A stretch of DNA of 64,000 nucleotides from an uncultured Gammaproteobacteria bacterium (lineage in GTDB: Bacteria > Patescibacteriota > Patescibacteriia > UBA9570 > XYC2-FULL-38-9). A program made the translations under genes and the position numbers. The notes under the pieces are model-generated. The model searched no databases and had not been told where the DNA came from. It saw nothing but the letters and a program-made list of their open reading frames with translations. Shown here in pieces: positions 1,510-58,674 of this stretch (within the stretch, counting starts at the first letter, position 1; every line of letters starts with the position of its first letter). The stretch is from contig CAYFNF010000001.1 in the NCBI GenBank assembly GCA_964344485.1, positions 186,115 through 250,114 on the forward strand. The letters are read 5' to 3'.

Positions 1510-1744
1510 CCTGCGCATCGTTTCTACTAGACCCATTAGTAGATTTTTCCACATTTTTTCGAAAAACCCTTGACTTATGACGATCATTATTATAGAATTT
1601 TGCAAACGTTAAATAACGTACAAACGTAATGAACTCAGTGACACATACAATACAGAACTGTTTCGAGCTAATTATTAGCCTGATTGTCCTTATTCGTAAG
1701 GGTGGGTTTTTGAGTGCTAGGTAAACGTATTTACACATTACTCA

Positions 1745-1770
1745 AAAGCCCGCCACTCGGCGGGTTTTTT
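1745..1770 (+). terminator. Rho-independent terminator
   Basis: Hairpin gcccgcc-actc-ggcgggt followed by tttttt. Confidence 0.6.
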
Positions 1771-2049
1771 CATTACGTGATTGAGCCTCTCGCAGTACTC
1801 GTTCGGACTATAAACCCGGCTTGCGCCGGGCCAACCGTCCTTCACGAGCACTGCTGCGGCTCTCATGAAATGAATAACCTCACTGTACATGTAGAAATAC
1901 GTCTACAGTGGCACATTGAAAAGTGATTGATGTCAGATACTCTTGTCGATCTGGCGGTTCGTAGGAGGAGAGCGAGCCGCCGGACTGGCAAGAGTATCCT
2001 TCCCCAAGATGGGGAGTAACAGAACCGCGCTGCTGTGAAAAGGAGAGAC

Positions 2050-3351: not shown

Positions 3352-3510
3352 GCGGCAACGGCGAAGCTGGGCGGGCCTACCGAAGCACCACTACAGGACA
3401 TCGCATCAACGACATCAGTCCTTCGGGGTGAGCACCACACTCGCCCCTCCCCATTTTTTTCAACAACCCCGCGTCTGAGCGGTTCATATAAACATGATAT
3501 AATAATCACT

Positions 3511-4278
3511 ATGCCCGAAATAGCATCAAAAAAAACACGCGATCAAGTGAAGATTCGAGTCATTCACTTTCGAAGCGATCCAGTCATACAAAAGATGGAG
3601 TTTGATAGTTTTGTACGTTTTACAAAATTACGACCAGAGCAGCTTGTTGTGCATAACGCATTAACCGACCCAGTAACTACTGACCTGATAGATGGATTCG
3701 ATGGATTACTCATCGCCGGCGGTGGAGATGTTCGTGTTACCGAGGAGCTACCGTTTTGGGAGCCGGTGCGAAAGTTGTTGCGCCATGCGTATGAAATTAA
3801 TTTTCCAACGCTTGGAGTCTGCTTAGGCATCCAGTTAGCAGCACAAGAGTTCGGTGGAAAGCTCACGAGTGACAAGAAGTACTTCGAAACCGGAACCTAT
3901 CCAATGTACTTAACAGACGCAGCAAAGAACGATCCGATGTATCAAGGAATTCCAGAGATATTTAATGGACAGATGGGGCATAATGATACAGTAATTGAAA
4001 TACCAGCAGAAGCTGTTCATCTCACCTATAGCGATAGGTCAAAATATCAAGCGTTCTGCTTTCCCGGGAAGAAGATGTACTTCACGCAGTATCATCCTGA
4101 GTTAGACGAGCACCAGTTGCGTGAGCGTCTGTATTATTATGAAGAGCATTACGCAGATAACAAAGAAGAGTTTCAAGCCATCCTGAACACACTGCAAGAC
4201 TCCACTGATGCGTCTCTCATACTAGAACGGTTTGTTGATGTGTTGGTGCTTGATTCTGAAGCAGTTTGCGGAATGTAG
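3511..4278 (+). CDS. Class I glutamine amidotransferase-like protein, paralog 2
   Basis: Shares the same architecture as 748..1509: IRVIHFRSD, FVRFTKLRPEQL, TLGVCLGIQLAAQEFGG and TQYHPEL. Confidence 0.75.
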   Translation: MPEIASKKTRDQVKIRVIHFRSDPVIQKMEFDSFVRFTKLRPEQLVVHNALTDPVTTDLIDGFDGLLIAGGGDVRVTEELPFWEPVRKLLRHAYEINFPTLGVCLGIQLAAQEFGGKLTSDKKYFETGTYPMYLTDAAKNDPMYQGIPEIFNGQMGHNDTVIEIPAEAVHLTYSDRSKYQAFCFPGKKMYFTQYHPELDEHQLRERLYYYEEHYADNKEEFQAILNTLQDSTDASLILERFVDVLVLDSEAVCGM

Positions 4279-5102: not shown

Positions 5103-5447
5103 GATTCCCTAGGCCTAGCACCAAATGTTGTCAACTAGTTGTGTGTAGAATCTGTGCACGGGAGCACTTGATTTTTCCACTACAAACAACGTATAATGAA
5201 GGTGTCCTCTTTGAGGACGCAAGCTCTGTGATCGATACATCCAGTTTCAACAAGTCGTTTCCTGTAGGGTTCATATTTTACACACTGCGGTGTGTGAAGA
5301 GGGCCTCATGAGGTAGTTGTGCTCTGTACTACTCTGAAAGTGGTTCCGACTGCTTGAAGGTCTGCAGAATACTAGCTAGCTGAAGAAGCTGGCGAAGCCC
5401 ACCTACTTATCAGGAAGCTCGGAATATCGATAAACAGAGCTCACAAT

Positions 5448-5468
5448 ACCCGGGAGTACCCGGTTTTT
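5448..5468 (+). terminator. Terminator-like hairpin
   Basis: Stem ccggg-agta-cccgg followed by ttttt. Confidence 0.4.
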
Positions 5469-5515
5469 GTGTATAAAAAAACGCGCTGTGGCTCAGCTCG
5501 CTGTAGAGCGAAGCG

Positions 5516-6058
5516 TCATGAACCCACGCGCGTGCGTGTGAACAGCAGATGCGAGTTGCCGGACCAGAGGCGCTGGTAGCGACCCATGGGTCGATCCATG
5601 GAGCAGTAGGAGTAGTGCTCGCGCAAGTGTCGACGACCGCCAGTTGGTGACATGACGTGGATCACTGGGAAGGAGGTCTGGATCTGACCGACCTTGCCAG
5701 CGTCGTACGGTCTGCTGTTGAACGGGGAACCGAGGGCGAGCACCCCAGGGTCGTCATCATCTTCGTCGTAGACCCGGGTGACCAGGTCCCATGCGATCAG
5801 CTCCCACATGTTCGCCGGTCGGAACCCCCTGAGCCCTGTTGAGATCAGGAGTTGCTCAATGGGGACAGAGCCTGCACATCCGTACGGGGTCTCGCGAACC
5901 CGTACCAGGAAGAAGTCGCCGGGCCGTCCTGGCTGCATCAAGATCTCTGCCATGTTCTCCGATGGCCGCAGTCGGCGTGGTAGTCTGGTCGTGCTGCCGA
6001 GGTCCAGACCGAACGGGATGTTCAGCCGGAGTATGACCGTAAGCAAGCTGCTTACCAT
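5516..6058 (-). CDS. Hypothetical protein (high-GC island gene 1)
   Basis: High-GC ORF. ATG at 6058 is preceded by a perfect SD (AGGAGG, 9 nt spacing). The longer ORF reaching 6124 would start at GTG without an SD. No family recognised. Confidence 0.5.
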   Translation of the reverse strand: MVSSLLTVILRLNIPFGLDLGSTTRLPRRLRPSENMAEILMQPGRPGDFFLVRVRETPYGCAGSVPIEQLLISTGLRGFRPANMWELIAWDLVTRVYDEDDDDPGVLALGSPFNSRPYDAGKVGQIQTSFPVIHVMSPTGGRRHLREHYSYCSMDRPMGRYQRLWSGNSHLLFTRTRVGS

Positions 6059-6074
6059 TTTGCTAATCCTCCTA

Positions 6075-6313
6075 AGAGGTGCTTCATTGCGAATGATGCA
6101 CCCATGAGTAGATCTTCGCCCCACTCATTCATGCACCATGTTGTAAAAAAACGAGCACAATGTTCGAAACCCTATTCACATTCTCGCGTCTGCTGAGGTG
6201 AAGAGGAGAACACTATGCTCGTGTTTCCAGCGTATGATACGACCGCTCGGTGTCGTTAGTAGTTTTTCTTCTATTTGCGGCTTCTTCTTACCATGAGATT
6301 GCATGATCGTCAA
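6075..6313 (-). promoter_or_regulatory. Promoter-like element plus structured attenuator-type 5' leader, copy 1
   Basis: Minus-strand reading: TTGACG, 17 nt, TAAGAA. Then an AACAC-GAGCAUA-GUGUU hairpin. Then a 12-bp stem ACGAGCAUAGUG/CAUUGUGCUCGU followed by UUUUUUU. About 70% identical to the copy at 7081..7295. Confidence 0.45.
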
Positions 6314-6364
6314 GCCTTTCTTGCGGTTGATATTGATGTGCAGTACAATCACTCAGAGGTATAT

Positions 6365-6435
6365 GCGGGATTAGTACAATGGTAGTACATCTGCTTCCCA
6401 AGCAGGAGACGCGAGTTCGATTCTCGTATCCCGCT
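6365..6435 (+). tRNA. tRNA-Gly (anticodon CCC)
   Basis: Full cloverleaf. Acceptor GCGGGAT/ATCCCGC, D-stem GTAC, anticodon arm TCTGC-TTCCCAA-GCAGG, T-arm GCGAG-TTCGATT-CTCGT. CCA is not encoded. Confidence 0.85.
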
Positions 6436-6468
6436 CAATCAATGAGACAATAAAAAAGCCGTGGTTGG

Positions 6469-7080
6469 TTACCAGGGCTGTTGCACTTCGGTCGCGTCCT
6501 TGTACGCCTGGTGCAGCTTGGTGAGCCATCCTTCGTCGCCGATTGACAGCGCGCAGAGCAGGACGATCACGATCAGCAGGATGCCCACTGGGAGCAGCAG
6601 GACCACGTCATTTCGCGGCTGACGGGATTGCGGTTGGCGCCACCCCATCACGCACCGCGCTTTCCGGTTTTCCACCATGGACGCGGCACCAGCCAGTAGA
6701 TCACCACCAGCAGGACCAGGGCCGGAAGCACGCGGTAGGTGTCGTTGGCGTGGGTCCACTCGGCCCGTGAGCGCGGTGAAGAGCGCGAAGTCGGTCTGGC
6801 GGATGACCCACCGGATCGCGCGCTTCTGGGCATCCAGCGTGTTGTAGGACGGCTGGTCGCGGAGGGCGCTGGTGCGAAGCATGTCCATGTGGTCCATCAG
6901 GACCACGCCGTTCACCCGCGCGTAGATGTGCACGCAGAGCACGAACAGCAGGACGCCCGCACAGGCTAGGGACTGGATGAACACGAACTCTGGGGAGCCG
7001 TGCACCACACAGTACGCCAGGTCCACGAACGCGCCGAACGCGAGGACGCGACTGAGGTATGCGAAGGTTCGCATGTTCAC
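6469..7080 (-). CDS. Hypothetical membrane protein (high-GC island gene 2)
   Basis: High-GC ORF with hydrophobic N-terminal helices (FAYLSRVLAFGAFVDLAYCVV, LACAGVLLFVLCV). Start is ambiguous between GTG 7080 and ATG 7074. The overlapping antisense ORFs are GC artefacts. Confidence 0.5.
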   Translation of the reverse strand: MNMRTFAYLSRVLAFGAFVDLAYCVVHGSPEFVFIQSLACAGVLLFVLCVHIYARVNGVVLMDHMDMLRTSALRDQPSYNTLDAQKRAIRWVIRQTDFALFTALTGRVDPRQRHLPRASGPGPAGGDLLAGAASMVENRKARCVMGWRQPQSRQPRNDVVLLLPVGILLIVIVLLCALSIGDEGWLTKLHQAYKDATEVQQPW

Positions 7081-7295
7081 CTCGTGTTGGAGTTGATTCC
7101 GTGCTAACGAAATGTGCAGTTTCGCAAAACACGGGCATGCTGTTCAAAACCCTTCTCACTTCGGTAGCGAAGTAGAAGGAGAACACCATACCCGTGTTTC
7201 CGAGCGCTTCTGTTACGGCGGCTCAGGTCACCGTTGTGTTGATAGCACTGAATTGTCGAACAGCTGTTTGTACCATAGTGAACGCTCTTTGTCAA
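7081..7295 (-). promoter_or_regulatory. Promoter-like element plus structured attenuator-type 5' leader, copy 2
   Basis: Minus-strand reading: TTGACA, 17 nt, TACAAA. Then an AACAC-GGGUAUG-GUGUU hairpin. Then a stem ACACGGGUAUGGUG/CAGCAUGCCCGUGU followed by UUUU. Compensatory changes relative to copy 1 preserve the pairing. Confidence 0.45.
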
Positions 7296-7355
7296 CGCTA
7301 TATTCTTATCTCGGTATTTCTGATACAGTAAATAGGTAATAAGTAAGATACAACT

Positions 7356-7697
7356 ATGGCACTATTTCGTTATGCAACCGGGAAGGAGCCGTATTACATT
7401 GAAGCAGGATGGCCGCGGGGGAGTACGTATAAAAAAAGCCCAACCACTATTCGAGTAACAAAAAAAGACGAGCAAGGAAAGTATGTGATGGTCCAGGATC
7501 TTGGAGAAGTGAACTATGAAAAAGAAAAAGCTGAACACGGGTGGCATTTTTCAGCTGAGCAGTTAGGTGATATTGAATTAAAGATTGTGAAGCGAGCACT
7601 ACTGTTTACAGAAGTACAAGTATTCTTGAATGGGGAGAAGTTGAAAGGCAGTGAGATACTCTCAACTGCAGCTGGAGAGGTCGGGAGATACTCGTAA
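7356..7697 (+). CDS. Hypothetical protein
   Basis: Low-GC 113-aa ORF. No recognisable domain and no clear SD. Confidence 0.35.
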   Translation: MALFRYATGKEPYYIEAGWPRGSTYKKSPTTIRVTKKDEQGKYVMVQDLGEVNYEKEKAEHGWHFSAEQLGDIELKIVKRALLFTEVQVFLNGEKLKGSEILSTAAGEVGRYS

Positions 7698-7715
7698 TAA
7701 TCATACTTCATAAGA

Positions 7716-7741
7716 CAGTCGCAGGTGTGCGGCTGTTTTTT
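7716..7741 (+). terminator. Rho-independent terminator
   Basis: Hairpin cagtcgca-ggtg-tgcggctg followed by tttttt. Confidence 0.45.
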
Positions 7742-7800
7742 GTATCCATTGACAGACCTATTCTATTCCTGCATCATAACAGTTCTGTTTGGAGACGCGC

Positions 7801-8169
7801 ATGATAGTGTTGAGAGGGAGTCGAGAGACAGCAACCGCAGCGTTCATCGCTCTGGGATGGAAGGTCCGGGGGAGTCCCCCTGAAGAGCTACCTGATGGTA
7901 CGACACTGCATCCCGTGCACAGCAACGGTGAGGCAGCAGTGGGCAAGGTCTGCATCACGAGTGGACGGCCCCAGACCGCGCAGCGCTTCTCGCTTCCGCA
8001 AGGAGCCGCGATCTACGTGCTCAAGGGGGTGCTCAAGCTGAATGGAGAGACGTACACCGCCGGTACCCTGATCTGGATCCCGGCATCTGGCGCGTTCAAC
8101 GTCGACACCACCCGTGAGTGCACACTCGGGGTGTTCTACCCCGCACTGCCCGGACTGACCGGACCCTGA
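7801..8169 (+). CDS. Cupin-fold-like small protein (high-GC)
   Basis: High-GC ORF. GGAG lies 7 nt before ATG 7801. Beta-rich and cupin-like: GAAIYVLKGVLKLNGETYTAGTLIWIPASGAFNV. Confidence 0.45.
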   Translation: MIVLRGSRETATAAFIALGWKVRGSPPEELPDGTTLHPVHSNGEAAVGKVCITSGRPQTAQRFSLPQGAAIYVLKGVLKLNGETYTAGTLIWIPASGAFNVDTTRECTLGVFYPALPGLTGP

Positions 8170-8440
8170 GCCATGCTGCTGTTGATGCACCGTGTTCCGT
8201 GACATGATCGGACCGCGGATTTTTTTATTCTAATGCCGCTACTCGCTTAACCCTACGTGATACCAGTCTCGCTTCCTCCGCTTCGGCTTTACATGACTGT
8301 TCTCAATTCCTGTAACGCACGCTTCGCGTGCTTTCCTTTGCGTGTTGATTTTTCGTTATCCGTGTCTTTTGCGCAGCCTTCAGGCTTCGGTGCGCTGCGA
8401 ATAGTATCACTTCGGGTGTCGCTTGTATCGCTTCTTGAAT

Positions 8441-8471
8441 AAAAAAACGGCGATGTCTTACGAGATCATCG
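8441..8471 (-). terminator. Terminator for the minus-strand gene ending at 8492
   Basis: On the minus strand, hairpin CGATG-atctcgtaaga-CATCG then CCGUUUUUUU, immediately after the stop. Confidence 0.4.
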
Positions 8472-8491
8472 TCCGCGTGAGCATGTGCGCA

Positions 8492-8980
8492 TCAGTGGAC
8501 TGCGTCGTCTGGTCCGGCGGTGGTACCGGTCAGGATCGAGCCCTCAGGCCCGATTCGATGGCGGAACTCGGTTCCGGGTGATGCAGAGTCCACGATCGCT
8601 TCCATGGGATCGTCAGCAGGCCACGGGCGAGTCGCTTGGTCTCCGCGTTCGCGAGCCAGCTGGATCTCCAGCGGTGGCTCGGGTGGCAGATGGTTCACGA
8701 TCGCGCTCGTGAGGCGGCTCACCAGTTGCGCATACTGCGGCTGTGGAAGTCGGCTCTGGAAGAAGGCCTGCAGTGCAGCGGCCTCGGGTACGCTGTGAGC
8801 TTCGGCGATCTGCCGCACGGTCCCACCCGGGAGCGTTACGACGATGTTCACCGCCGCGTGACAGCACGGGCAGAGTTGCACGTCCAGCGTCACCTGAGCG
8901 AGCCACTCTCGTGTGTAGTACTCCGCGCCTTGTTCGTAGCACAGCACATGCTCAAGGTTCACCTCGTCACAAGTTGCCAA
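8492..8980 (-). CDS. Hypothetical Cys/His-rich protein (possible zinc-binding), high-GC
   Basis: Probable TTG start at 8980 with SD AAGGAG 8 nt upstream. Carries HVLCYEQ...CPCCH. The coding region is high GC, but its promoter region (8981-9070) is AT-rich. Confidence 0.45.
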   Translation of the reverse strand: MATCDEVNLEHVLCYEQGAEYYTREWLAQVTLDVQLCPCCHAAVNIVVTLPGGTVRQIAEAHSVPEAAALQAFFQSRLPQPQYAQLVSRLTSAIVNHLPPEPPLEIQLARERGDQATRPWPADDPMEAIVDSASPGTEFRHRIGPEGSILTGTTAGPDDAVH

Positions 8981-9137
8981 TAGAATTGCTCCTTTGGACA
9001 GGGTTTCGTGAGTGAGGATAGCCCTACTTGTAATATATATTAGATAATATTGCAAGTGTGTATAACGCAAACAGTGCCCGTGCGCTTTAATTTAAACGTG
9101 GTATACTGATAAGGAGTTAAGTAATAAAGACAAAACC

Positions 9138-10949
9138 ATGAGAAAAACGATCCTTGTTCTCAGTACCGGGTTGTTTCTTTTATTGATGCAACCTGTGAGC
9201 GCTGAGACCGCACCGATCACTCTAGACGGCGACATATCAGACTGGGATGACGCTGGTATAGAGAGCCTTATTACCGACACTACCGGAGAGGTAGTTGGGA
9301 CTGATTGGTGCTATAACAACGCTACTTCCCAGTGGGAGGAGAAAGCTGAGAAAGATTGCGGCTCATTATTTGTGAATCAAGAGTTGTTTTTAGACATTGG
9401 AGACTTTCGAATGACTCATGATTCTACATTGATGTACGTTGCGCTGGAGTCAGCCGCGCCAATTATGGGCGTGAAGGTTCTAGATCCAACGAGTTTGGAT
9501 TACGGTAAATATCTACCGTTTGGATATCCATTAGATTGGGATGGTTCCGGCCCACCAGAAAAGTTTATAGCAGGAGCGCCTAGAGCGTTTGACCACTCTA
9601 TGGTGATCTGCTTTGACTTAAATCAGGATGGAATTGATGACCTATTTGCGAGAACGAATTTTCAATGGGAAGAAGGTATGGTTGGCACTGAAACCGGAGA
9701 AGGCATGACTATCATGCACTATCTGTATCAAGATGATGGTGATGGAGAGTACACGCCAAGTACTGATACACTCTTAGAGGAAGAAGAAGACAATCCTGTC
9801 GGTGTTTCATCTGATTCCTTTGATGCGAGTGAAGGGTTGTCAGCAGTCACTGAAGTTTCGGACGAGCTAGAGAGCTTTGAACTTCTAATTGGCGAAACAG
9901 TGAATGTGCATGTAGAGATGTGGTCATCCCTTGCTGACGAGACTGAGCCAGTGGAGTACACCTTCACAGAGTATATACCTGAGAAGATCACCGGGTTAAA
10001 AATAAACGACCCACTACCGCATCGACTCAGCTATGTGAACCTTACATGGGACGCAGATGATTCAGCTGCTACGTATGACATTCAACTATTGAAAAAGAAC
10101 GGTACGGTTTCACAGAGCCTAACATCAGCTACAAATAGTAAAAAGATAAAGAAGAAGTATCTTGTCGCGAATAGCGCAAGAAAAGTGAAGGTCCGAGGCG
10201 TCACCGGCGCTGGAACTCCTGGAGAGTACTCTGATACTAAGACGTTCTATGTTCCACCGGCAATGCCTCGCAATCTTCAAGCAAAGCGCGTCGGTCCAAC
10301 TACTGCAGTACTTGATTGGGTTGCACCAAAGAGGCACGCAAAGCTCAAACACTATAGAGTTATTCTATACAAAGGGAAGAAGGCCGTTCGAAGGTTGAAT
10401 GTGAAAAAGACGCAAAAGTTGGTTCGAAACTTAGATCCATCCAGCAAGTACTCCTTTAAAGTACGAACTGTGCGAAGAACTGGAGTATCAAGTAGGTGGT
10501 CTAAGAAGAAATCATTTACCACTATGGGGCCAGTACAGTATGTCAAGATCGAAGACATGACTCGAGTGGCAGATGATGACCTGAAACCTGGCGCGGATAT
10601 TGATGCATTGGTACTCAATCAAGAAGACGGGACCAAGTATTACGCAGACATGATCCCTGATCGGTACATTCCGATCTCCAGTGGAGATGATGACCCAGCA
10701 GAGATGCTCGGTATGCCAGACTATTCAGTAGATACAGACTGGGGGTACACTTCTTTGGGTGGAGTTGGCGGATATGCAGTGATCAAGCTAGAGCAAGCCA
10801 TGGATAAGGACTCTAAGAATCTAGTCATTCGTGAACTGCGCACAGTCTCTAAAGTCGGGGATGCTTATAAAGTCTACTTTTCTGAATCAGAGCTAGGCCC
10901 ATGGACATTCATTGGTCGCCACTCTGGCCGCGCAATCATTGGGTTATAA
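9138..10949 (+). CDS. Secreted protein with fibronectin-III-like/Ig-like domains and a Lys/Arg-rich region
   Basis: Signal peptide MRKTILVLSTGLFLLLMQPVSA|ETAP. Fn3-like segments include PRNLQAKRVGPTTAVLDWVAP. Confidence 0.6.
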   Translation: MRKTILVLSTGLFLLLMQPVSAETAPITLDGDISDWDDAGIESLITDTTGEVVGTDWCYNNATSQWEEKAEKDCGSLFVNQELFLDIGDFRMTHDSTLMYVALESAAPIMGVKVLDPTSLDYGKYLPFGYPLDWDGSGPPEKFIAGAPRAFDHSMVICFDLNQDGIDDLFARTNFQWEEGMVGTETGEGMTIMHYLYQDDGDGEYTPSTDTLLEEEEDNPVGVSSDSFDASEGLSAVTEVSDELESFELLIGETVNVHVEMWSSLADETEPVEYTFTEYIPEKITGLKINDPLPHRLSYVNLTWDADDSAATYDIQLLKKNGTVSQSLTSATNSKKIKKKYLVANSARKVKVRGVTGAGTPGEYSDTKTFYVPPAMPRNLQAKRVGPTTAVLDWVAPKRHAKLKHYRVILYKGKKAVRRLNVKKTQKLVRNLDPSSKYSFKVRTVRRTGVSSRWSKKKSFTTMGPVQYVKIEDMTRVADDDLKPGADIDALVLNQEDGTKYYADMIPDRYIPISSGDDDPAEMLGMPDYSVDTDWGYTSLGGVGGYAVIKLEQAMDKDSKNLVIRELRTVSKVGDAYKVYFSESELGPWTFIGRHSGRAIIGL

Positions 10950-12919: not shown

Positions 12920-12927
12920 GGCAAAGA

Positions 12928-12956
12928 TAAAAACGCGGAACAGAATCCGCGTTTTT
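12928..12956. terminator. Bidirectional terminator between sod-like gene and rpmB
   Basis: Hairpin cgcgga-acagaa-tccgcg flanked by an A-run and a T-run. Confidence 0.6.
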
Positions 12957-12971
12957 CTATTACAAAGAACG

Positions 12972-57382: not shown

Positions 57383-57427
57383 CATAGTAAACAGATAGTG
57401 TTTGAATAAATTTTACAGGCATTGACC

Positions 57428-58411
57428 ATGGCCTGTTCTTTCTCGCCAACCCCATTGAGGAGGTACGCATTGAAAGAGGAAACGACAGGGCGTTCTATCG
57501 TCGTGACCGGGGGATCGAGAGGAATCGGTTGCGCACTGGTGGAGTTGTTCACCGAAGCAGGATGGAGGGTCGCAGCGCTCGCGCGCTTCTCTGAGACAGA
57601 CGGTGAACCACCGGCGGACTTCCCCAGAAGAGTGATGCCCATGCGGTTCGACGCAGTGTCGACTGTGGCCGACGTCTACGGCATTCATCACACCGCAGTG
57701 GGTAACATCGAGCCGGTTCTGGACACGGTTCTGGAGTGGAACCACGGGAGGCTGCCCGAGGTCGTGGTGCTCAACCACGGTACGGCTGCTGCGCACGAAG
57801 ACGCATTCAGCGCGATCTGGTTGCTGATCCTCAACCTGGTCAGCAAGGTGATGATCACCTACCGGCTGATCCAGCTCTGGGAAGAGCAGCATCGTCCACC
57901 CCTCACGGTCTGCTACATGGGTAGCTACATGGAGCGGTTGCCGCTGTTCGGCGCCAACCAGTACTCGCTGACCAAGGCCGCGCTGGCTCTGCTGGCGTAC
58001 CGACTCCGTCGGCAGTACCGAGGCACCACGCTGCACGTGATGCACGCAACGCCGGGAGTGGTGCGGACCCAGATCTGGGACCACCAGGACAACATGCAGC
58101 CGTGGTTCAGGACCATCATGCTGGCTCTCGCGACACCGGTCGAGGTCTGCGCGCGCAACATCATGCACGCCATCCTCAAGCGCAAGGCGTGCTCGCGGCC
58201 GACCATGGATGCGAAGCTGGTCTTCATGCCACTCGTGGGCCGACTGACGGTTCCGGTGTACAACATGCTCCGGTACCTCGGGTACAGTCCGGAGGAAGTC
58301 TACGAGGAGTGGCTGGCCAAGCGGCTCTACGGCACGCGCTGGTTCTACCGGCTCGTACAGTCCATCATGATCCGCATCGCAGGACGAATCGAACGCCAAC
58401 AGTCCGAATAA
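57428..58411 (+). CDS. Short-chain dehydrogenase/reductase (SDR) family oxidoreductase, high-GC foreign-looking gene
   Basis: Cofactor motif VVTGGSRGIGCAL. Catalytic YSLTK (YxxxK). GC about 60% or more. The fully overlapping antisense ORF 57413..58423 is a GC artefact. Confidence 0.7.
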   Translation: MACSFSPTPLRRYALKEETTGRSIVVTGGSRGIGCALVELFTEAGWRVAALARFSETDGEPPADFPRRVMPMRFDAVSTVADVYGIHHTAVGNIEPVLDTVLEWNHGRLPEVVVLNHGTAAAHEDAFSAIWLLILNLVSKVMITYRLIQLWEEQHRPPLTVCYMGSYMERLPLFGANQYSLTKAALALLAYRLRRQYRGTTLHVMHATPGVVRTQIWDHQDNMQPWFRTIMLALATPVEVCARNIMHAILKRKACSRPTMDAKLVFMPLVGRLTVPVYNMLRYLGYSPEEVYEEWLAKRLYGTRWFYRLVQSIMIRIAGRIERQQSE

Positions 58412-58434
58412 GGGTGAACCCATCCCTTTTTTAT
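58410..58434 (+). terminator. Terminator-like hairpin after the SDR gene
   Basis: Hairpin aaggg-tgaacccat-ccctt followed by ttttt. Confidence 0.4.
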
Positions 58435-58598: not shown

Positions 58599-58674
58599 TC
58601 GGGTGTAGCTCAGTTGGTAGAGCGCCTGGCTGTTAACCAGGAGGTCGCAGGTTCGATCCCTGCTGCCCGAGCCA
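58599..58674 (+). tRNA. tRNA-Asn (anticodon GTT), CCA encoded
   Basis: D-arm GCTC-AGTTGGTA-GAGC. Anticodon arm CCTGG-CTGTTAA-CCAGG. T-arm GCAGG-TTCGATC-CCTGC. 3' GCCA. Confidence 0.85.

Follow-up and report, generated by a model that had tools for sequence, protein, structure and literature searches.

A duplicated promoter-like site and structured terminator leader upstream of two unrelated high-GC genes: a candidate transcription attenuator from a sparsely sampled bacterial lineage

Introduction

In RAT systems (BglG/SacY/LicT), a short leader hairpin shares nucleotides with the 5′ arm of a stronger terminator and blocks termination only if it is stabilised by a protein; two asymmetric internal loops are conserved in this hairpin, which shares 6–10 nucleotides (nt) with the terminator, and at licS the energy gap is 6.6 kcal/mol (PMC5393181). 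ANTAR leaders (AmiR/NasR/EutV) contain two stem-loops upstream of or overlapping the terminator, the second of which uses nucleotides of the terminator 5′ arm (PMC3369936), while the HMP-PP (thiS) riboswitch has its conserved nucleotides within the terminator hairpin and no separate aptamer domain (PMC6478431). Here, we describe a leader element with partial likeness to these systems that is present in two copies on the minus strand of a 64,000-nt stretch of bacterial DNA (contig CAYFNF010000001.1, positions 186,115 to 250,114; hereafter the window), each copy lying 5′ of a gene of high GC content.

We propose, with a probability of about 0.45, that each copy is a cis-acting 5′ leader that functions as a transcription attenuator, probably a factor-dependent one. 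The element falls into no described family, and two copies are too few for it to be called a new RNA class yet. If confirmed, it would represent a novel type of leader RNA, one that uses a terminator to gate ORFan genes gained by horizontal transfer, in a lineage with almost no sequenced relatives.

Architecture of the leader units

The two units, each of about 170 nt, occupy positions 6313–6145 (copy 1) and 7295–7126 (copy 2) and have an identical order of parts: a promoter-like site, TTGAC(G/A)–17 nt–TA..AA, is followed by a small upstream hairpin (P0), a hairpin of about 70 nt with 29 bp, and a U-run. The individual features are listed below.

6313–6285, minus strand: copy 1 promoter-like site; −35 TTGACG (6313–6308), 17-nt spacer, −10 TAAGAA (6290–6285), TG at the extended −10 position
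7295–7267, minus strand: copy 2 promoter-like site; −35 TTGACA (7295–7290), 17-nt spacer, −10 TACAAA (7272–7267), TG at the extended −10 position; 10/12 matches to the consensus
6256–6239, minus strand: copy 1 upstream hairpin P0, ACGAC-ACCGAGCG-GUCGU; −5.6 kcal/mol
7234–7215, minus strand: copy 2 upstream hairpin P0, ACGGUG-ACCUGAGC-CGCCGU; −8.3 kcal/mol
6228–6205, minus strand: copy 1 early alternative hairpin, GGAAACAC-GAGCAUA-GUGUU(C)UCC; −7.7 kcal/mol
7201–7178, minus strand: copy 2 early alternative hairpin, GGAAACAC-GGGUAUG-GUGUU(C)UCC; −8.0 kcal/mol
6222–6151, with U7 at 6151–6145, minus strand: copy 1 long hairpin (29 bp, UUUC bulge, variable apical part), a predicted intrinsic terminator; −34.1 kcal/mol, covariance-model score 104 bits
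7197–7129, with U4 at 7129–7126, minus strand: copy 2 long hairpin (29 bp, UUUU bulge), a predicted intrinsic terminator; −41.5 kcal/mol, covariance-model score 95.7 bits
6144–6059, minus strand: 5′ untranslated region (UTR) of copy 1 on the 3′ side of the terminator, with a hairpin of about 18 bp (6139–6093) and the ribosome-binding site AGGAGG; not conserved in copy 2

An earlier reading made from the DNA letters alone (the sequence-only reading) had described a duplicated promoter and structured leader with the same order of parts and about 70% identity. All of these parts were recovered on the minus strand, P0 being an addition to that description, and the column identity is 73% over ∼300 columns (MAFFT) and 82% over a 117-column core. 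The similarity begins near the −35 box and stops at the U-run. Three blocks are invariant between the copies, namely GGAAACACG, GUGUUCUCCU and AGGGUUUYGAACA. The core pattern GTGTTCTCCT-N15–45-GGGTTTYGAACA has exactly two occurrences in the window, and 100 shuffles yielded none; a blastn search of the window with copy 1 recovers copy 2 (E = 3e-4); and a covariance model built from the two copies, run over the 64 kb with filters off, finds only those two, the next score (14.7 bits) belonging to an ordinary terminator. The shared core is therefore not a chance match.

In each unit the TTGAC–17–TA..AA site is the best sigma-70-like site. It is also the only one in the ∼250–300 nt 5′ of the start codon and precedes the hairpin. 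Since no sigma-70-like site lies between hairpin and start codon in either unit, the downstream genes would depend on read-through. Each of these genes has a good ribosome-binding site. Both elements are situated in divergent intergenic regions and thus are not the ends of neighbouring genes. A reading of the motif GGAAAC as part of an extracytoplasmic function (ECF)-type promoter was rejected, as no fitting −10 box was found.

The main rival to attenuation also draws on these boundaries. Promoter, P0, long hairpin and U-run could constitute an independent small RNA gene, giving a stand-alone transcript of ∼130–150 nt and present as two paralogous copies, with the high-GC open reading frames (ORFs) having landed in 'safe' DNA behind its terminator, where they would be expressed by leakage only. 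The conserved stretch is exactly one promoter-to-terminator unit, with similarity ending at the U-run, the U7 tail of copy 1 is strong, and the units lie in a lineage-specific variable region in which insertions accumulate (see below). Terminated leader transcripts can, moreover, also serve as small RNAs. However, both copies are co-oriented with, and directly 5′ of, genes equipped with strong ribosome-binding sites yet lacking a separate sigma-70-like site, two of two copies precede high-GC ORFs, and the unit shows no evident long, conserved single-stranded stretch that could act as a seed and has no known target. On balance we regard a small RNA gene as somewhat improbable, while still the most serious competitor.

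RNA folding, strand and compensatory changes

Folded with their flanks, copies 1 and 2 have minimum free energies of −35.7 and −48.5 kcal/mol, respectively, far better than shuffled sequences (z-scores of −5.25 and −7.94). The long stem had been described as overlapping a small conserved hairpin, AACAC-N7-GUGUU. Both structures are present, in a somewhat different form. The long stem is really one continuous 29-bp hairpin comprising an outer stem of 15–17 bp, a conserved 4-nt bulge on the 3′ side (UUUY), an inner stem and an apical part, the sequence and length of which differ between the copies while remaining paired in both. The small hairpin extends to 8 bp with a single 1-nt bulge and sits almost wholly inside the 5′ arm of the long one. 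In both copies, a stable stem-loop with an abutting U-run on the transcribed strand has the features of an intrinsic terminator. The two hairpins are much longer than the ordinary terminators of the window (for example 12924–12961), and the top three of the four longest local inverted repeats in the 64 kb lie in leaders of high-GC genes.

The fold of the plus-strand RNA is 10 kcal/mol less stable than that of the minus-strand RNA in both copies because several of the hairpin pairs are G–U; for the strands folded as DNA, the gap is 1.7 kcal/mol in copy 1 and 7.5 kcal/mol in copy 2. By these model energies, the asymmetry favours an RNA transcribed in the same direction as the downstream genes over a DNA palindrome, in keeping with the earlier assignment of a terminator hairpin and U-run to the 5′ leaders as a structure at the RNA level.

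Among the 27 alignable pairs, four are changed on both sides and still paired (two in the long stem and one each in P0 and the apical part), as the sequence-only reading had supposed for the differing positions; three further changes are one-sided and compatible, and two cells are broken. The P0 share consists of one pair altered on both sides and one altered on a single side. Paired cells amount to 96%, compared with 30–46% when the partners are slid. Drawn from two sequences, this evidence of compensation is suggestive only.

The shape of the hairpin also recalls an integron attC site, which is likewise an imperfect long hairpin with a conserved basal stem, unpaired bases on one strand and a variable tip, and which likewise adjoins ORFan genes of foreign composition. 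The hairpins here have a conserved outer stem, a one-strand bulge and a variable terminal structure, and they fold as single-stranded DNA too. A DNA-level recombination or insertion site, attC-like or a landing pad, that places variable foreign ORFs behind a resident promoter would suit the occurrence of one leader type before two unrelated, compositionally foreign ORFans, as well as the like pattern of a second leader family across two genomes (see below). The R″/R′ box consensus of integron attC sites is RYYYAAC … GTTRRRY. Unlike such sites, the present element has no R-box or L-box, its basal stem (GUGUUC/GAACA) being off the consensus, and no integrase was found among the window ORFs scanned. 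It lies upstream of an ORF and has its own promoter, the two units form no co-oriented array and have a tRNA gene between them, and the G–U pairs make the fold strand-specific and RNA-like. The shift in composition, moreover, comes at the ORF, 50–90 nt past the hairpin. We therefore consider a DNA-level site very unlikely.

A candidate attenuation mechanism

Under the attenuator proposal, transcription would start at the TTGAC–17–TA..AA site and the transcript would run for ∼55–60 nt through P0 and then into the 29-bp hairpin and U-run, acting as an intrinsic terminator. By default, most transcripts would stop at the U-run and the foreign-looking gene would be made by read-through only. In prefix (co-transcriptional) folding, the early hairpin GGAAACAC-N7-GUGUU(C)UCC is the first structure to form. 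In it, GUGUUCUCC would pair upstream with GGAAACAC to give the 8-bp hairpin; alternatively, it would pair downstream with GGG..GAACA inside the terminator. The middle invariant block is able to pair with either of the other two, and the invariant blocks coincide with these two-partner segments, which would account for their invariance next to a covarying middle part of the outer stem. Since the early hairpin is weaker than the terminator by ∼26–34 kcal/mol, regulated read-through would require the early hairpin, and possibly P0 as well, to be held by a trans-acting factor. The likeliest candidate is an antiterminator protein that binds RNA, like those of the RAT/CAT and ANTAR systems, and by analogy the arrangement looks more like protein-dependent antitermination than like a self-sufficient riboswitch. 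The mutually exclusive antiterminator and terminator folds envisaged in the sequence-only reading thus stand in part: the alternative 8-bp fold exists, but at about −8 kcal/mol against −34 and −41.5 kcal/mol it is unable to compete unaided, and it is not backed by covariation.

As in RAT leaders, the 5′ arm of the terminator (here −34 to −41 kcal/mol) contributes to a weaker hairpin, which in this element has 8 bp and −8 kcal/mol and lies within that arm. It differs in having a single 1-nt bulge in place of two internal loops, a nearly complete overlap with the terminator, an energy gap of ∼26–34 kcal/mol as opposed to 6.6 kcal/mol at licS, and no sequence similarity to RAT; no CAT-PRD antiterminator gene was found among 40 window ORFs scanned against Pfam. 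P0 and the early hairpin, separated by a linker of 13–16 nt, have the dual-hairpin layout of ANTAR leaders. Their loops are unlike those of that family (PMC3369936), with 8 nt in P0 (ACCGAGCG and ACCUGAGC) and 7 nt in the early hairpin (GAGCAUA and GGGUAUG), and with A1/G4 only in the P0 loop of copy 1; no ANTAR-domain ORF is present among the window ORFs scanned. The element accordingly fails defining features of both families.

Several observations weigh against attenuation as proposed. Both −10 boxes end in A in place of the usual T, and a standard promoter scan calls neither. The loop of the early hairpin is not conserved (GAGCAUA in copy 1, GGGUAUG in copy 2) and its pairs are invariant, so that no covariation backs the alternative fold, which faces the large energy deficit given above. 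The covariation values observed were reached in 34 of 500 shuffles, the statistics of two sequences being weak. No antiterminator protein, whether ANTAR, CAT/PRD or the like, occurs among the 40 ORFs scanned. Finally, there are only two copies, in one genome, and no further homologue of the element was found in Rfam, in genome, metagenome, viral or phage and plasmid searches, or at the loci of relatives.

The energy gap bears equally on a simpler alternative, in which the leader hairpin is unregulated and there is no switch: a leaky terminator that permanently damps foreign genes, or a hairpin for RNA stability or RNase III processing. In its favour, the terminator exceeds the alternative hairpin in stability by 26–34 kcal/mol, high-GC genes have further long leader hairpins that lack a U-run (6139–6093, 1770–1873 and 1936–1998), and a duplex of 15 bp, a 4-nt bulge and 7–12 bp is long enough for RNase III. 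This explanation leaves unaccounted for the invariance of GGAAACACG, which lies largely outside the terminator stem, and its complementarity to GUGUUCUCC, as well as the conservation of P0 with compensation. A hairpin of this kind without a switch seems decidedly unlikely to us.

Search for relatives of the element

At the gathering threshold, the only matches to Rfam 15 in the window are three tRNAs. With the limit relaxed to E ≤ 10 over 5400–9200, copy 2 shows chance-level overlaps (Flavi_CRE and mir-3533, 18 bits each) and copy 1 shows none, in agreement with the earlier failure to match a known riboswitch class. Scans for the exact core in 185,579 species genomes gave two matches without the outer stem, which look like chance occurrences in unrelated sequence. 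In JGI metagenomes four matches were obtained, all from one contig family, in which the motif corresponds to a ribosome-binding site and start codon read in reverse complement and again lacks the outer stem. Two patterns searched in IMG/VR viral contigs gave no match, and these genome, metagenome and virus scans demanded an exact core of 21–22 nt, such that diverged copies would be missed. No match was found by blastn against phage and plasmid collections, and with the covariance model (R1) neither the window nor four loci of distant relatives, the nearest available, yielded an additional copy. Lack of conservation beyond the two copies had been named in the sequence-only reading as something that would count against it; none was indeed found, in a test made weak by the exact core required.

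These results bear most directly on a metabolite- or ion-sensing riboswitch of the kind seen in the HMP-PP/thiS class, where the aptamer forms part of the terminator. Here the terminator stem includes a conserved region of bulge and internal loop (GUGUUC-UCCU/AGGG-UUUY-GAACA), and conserved nucleotides in a terminator-embedded aptamer have precedent (PMC6478431). Unlike that riboswitch, the element matches no Rfam family, also at the relaxed limit of E ≤ 10, is limited to two copies in one genome and has no defined pathway; the downstream genes are unrelated ORFans with no common metabolic role, and the loop of the alternative hairpin is not conserved. An aptamer conserved across many genomes before functionally coherent genes was not seen, in scans that needed the exact 21–22-nt core. 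The idea of a riboswitch is accordingly not borne out, and we regard it as extremely unlikely.

Coding status of the leaders and the downstream genes

The possibility that the similarity merely reflects a tandem duplication of coding sequence, raised in the sequence-only reading as an alternative, was rejected. ORFs that overlap the leaders start inside or upstream of the promoter boxes and differ in frame and length; in their alignable parts the differences are non-synonymous and an 8-nt indel breaks the register. Nor do the two copies share a conserved leader peptide. Copy 1 has no start codon between the predicted transcription start and the hairpin, and an ATG in the stem of copy 2 is without counterpart in copy 1; a conserved short ORF over the switching segments, as in a ribosome-mediated (leader-peptide) attenuator, is therefore lacking. 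No tandem repeats are present in either leader, and hence nothing resembles the antitoxin repeats of a type III (ToxIN-like) toxin–antitoxin system, for which PADLOC gave no matches and a structure model of the first downstream gene was uninformative.

5516–6058, minus strand: gene 1, an ORFan of 180 residues; 61% GC, GC content at third codon positions (GC3) 0.74
6469–7074, minus strand: gene 2 region, 64% GC; annotated as a single ORF of 201 residues

The two proteins are unrelated (BLASTP E = 2.4), as had been claimed. The GC3 phase of the 201-residue ORF shifts by one frame at about 6800–6690, and the ORF probably comprises two membrane-protein genes joined by a TGATG overlap, the first frameshifted (7074 to 6648) and the second of 59 residues (6648–6469); the probable frameshift could represent a pseudogene, an assembly error or programmed frameshifting. 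No homologues of either protein were detected among 5.8 billion clustered proteins, and a full HMMER search of 1.84 billion representatives gave none for gene 1. Neither protein has a family match in Pfam, PHROG, NCBIfam or PADLOC. For gene 1, AlphaFold gave an uninformative model (pLDDT 29.5).

A second leader family

A further group of leaders, family B, has three members, at 1570–1770 in the window and at 3760–3932 and 7342–7509 in a distant relative (L010). In each, a promoter of native composition is followed by a leader with a T-run terminator at its end, a UTR and an unrelated high-GC ORF. Counted up to the ORF, the three units span 1570–2050 in the window and 3760–4062 and 7342–7617 in L010. 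The features of the window copy and of the UTR behind it are as follows.

1570–1598, plus strand: consensus promoter, TTGACT–17–TAGAAT
1629–1724, plus strand: short ORF of 31 residues, MNSVTHTIQNCFELIISLIVLIRKGGFLSAR
1692–1765, plus strand: terminator hairpin of 74 nt, −34 kcal/mol, T6; leader of the gene with its ATG at 2050
1770–1873, plus strand: long hairpin in the UTR of the gene starting at 2050; z = −8.6, no U-run, no Rfam match
1936–1998, plus strand: long hairpin in the same UTR, with 26-nt arms; z = −6.6, no U-run, no Rfam match

The last two hairpins both fall within the 280-nt UTR of the high-GC gene starting at 2050. The two L010 leaders can be aligned to the window leader and each precedes a different high-GC ORF; one has a hairpin of 80 nt (−39.5 kcal/mol, T7). 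In two of the three copies the terminator is a hairpin of 74–80 nt, the 5′ arm of which overlaps the 3′ end of an ORF of 26–31 residues. The similarity of the short-ORF peptides across copies is weak and unverified. One copy lies directly behind a gene of the class-I glutamine amidotransferase (GATase) family in both the window and L010, where the ORF at the syntenic position, the one directly compared, is unrelated to the window gene (E = 0.76). A tblastn search with the island proteins of the window found no match to the high-GC ORFs associated with family B in L010.

Family B and the two studied copies are alike in promoter, leader with T-run terminator, UTR and unrelated high-GC ORF, and differ in that they share no sequence similarity. 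In family B the ORF of 26–31 residues that overlaps the 5′ arm of the hairpin suggests ribosome-dependent control, whereas the studied copies have no conserved ORF; family B thus looks like a ribosome-dependent attenuator. The combination of native-composition promoter, leader, T-run terminator and variable foreign-looking ORF is a recurring arrangement in the lineage, of which the studied copies are one instance; the terminator takes the form of a long hairpin in most copies. This recurrence raises the prior for a cis-regulatory role. It also keeps alive two other ideas: the terminators of small resident genes may be followed by safe DNA in which foreign ORFs simply build up, or the hairpins may mark a capture site.

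A wider reading, which we hold to be unlikely, would see the resident leader modules of the lineage (promoter, structured RNA and T-run terminator) as standard adaptors that install and control variable foreign ORFs. The studied copies would then be one such family, serving either as a new protein-dependent antitermination switch for acquired genes or as an RNA/DNA hairpin with an added role in marking the site of capture. The broader pattern may outweigh the single motif in importance, as two unrelated leader families each stand before several unrelated high-GC ORFs, one of them across two genomes, and this hints at a general way to tame or capture foreign genes.

Host lineage and the high-GC region

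The window is part of a bacterial chromosome of ∼44% GC that encodes EF-G, EF-Tu, a ribosomal-protein/SecY cluster, DnaB, RecR and an ECF sigma factor. This lineage has hardly been sampled: the GATase-family protein adjoining the studied units is 52% identical to its best homologue, and EF-Tu is alone in its 90% cluster. In a comparison among solved ribosomes, uL2 is closest to proteins from Bacillota, a group in which leader terminators are a common control device.

Five ORFs at 2–9 kb have a GC content of 60–64% and a GC3 of 0.65–0.82. In addition to genes 1 and 2, they comprise the following.

2035/2050–3351, plus strand: high-GC ORF behind the family B leader
7789–8169, plus strand: high-GC ORF
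8492–9070, minus strand: high-GC ORF

GC is high inside these ORFs and ∼45–50% in their flanks, and GC3 locally reaches 0.97 in the window. Two distant relatives show a similar high-GC pattern with unrelated proteins (L007, ∼6540–7745, plus strand; L010, 4062–5252, 7617–7994 and 8334–9770). Across these genomes of ∼43–45% GC, the high-GC ORFs (60–65% GC) are nearly all without family match or homologue. For the two proteins searched, the missing homologues argue against donation from a well-sampled high-GC group.

In two distant relatives the GATase gene is followed by that for endonuclease III, and one also has AhpC-SOD further on. In the window, the stretch between these two genes (5103–9137) holds four of the five high-GC ORFs, including both genes downstream of the studied leaders, and is a lineage-specific variable region. 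Its convergent intergenic segment 8170–8491 (322 nt) is strongly A-rich on the minus strand and has neither significant structure (z of −0.9 and −0.2) nor an Rfam match. A T6–7 run followed by ATT was entertained as a cassette boundary after the island genes and dropped, as terminators of native genes end in a similar T-run plus TATT.

One tRNA gene lies between the studied units.

6365–6436, plus strand: tRNA-Gly(CCC), transcribed away from copy 1

The promoter-like site of copy 1 adjoins, and points away from, the likely plus-strand promoter of this tRNA (TTGCGG–17–TACAAT, read by eye), and copy 2 faces an ORF at 7356–7697. Integration at the tRNA with an att repeat was rejected, since there is no second copy of the tRNA-Gly 3′ end.

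Three paralogous class-I GATase genes (748–1509, 3511–4278 and 4266/4332–5102, plus strand), two of them in tandem, lie downstream of an M20 peptidase gene, and high-GC units are interleaved among them. A 22-nt direct repeat (1548–1569 and 3448–3469, plus strand; 82% identity), TCCACATTTTTTCGAAAAACCC and TCCCCATTTTTTTCAACAACCC, flanks on both sides the promoter–leader–high-GC gene unit situated between two of the paralogues; it could be a target duplication or merely part of the GATase tandem duplication.

A sixth high-GC ORF is found elsewhere in the window.

57422–58411, plus strand: short-chain dehydrogenase gene, GC3 0.80; adjoins tRNA-Asn (58599–58674, plus strand)

This gene is accompanied on the opposite strand by a shadow ORF of nearly the same length (57413–58423).

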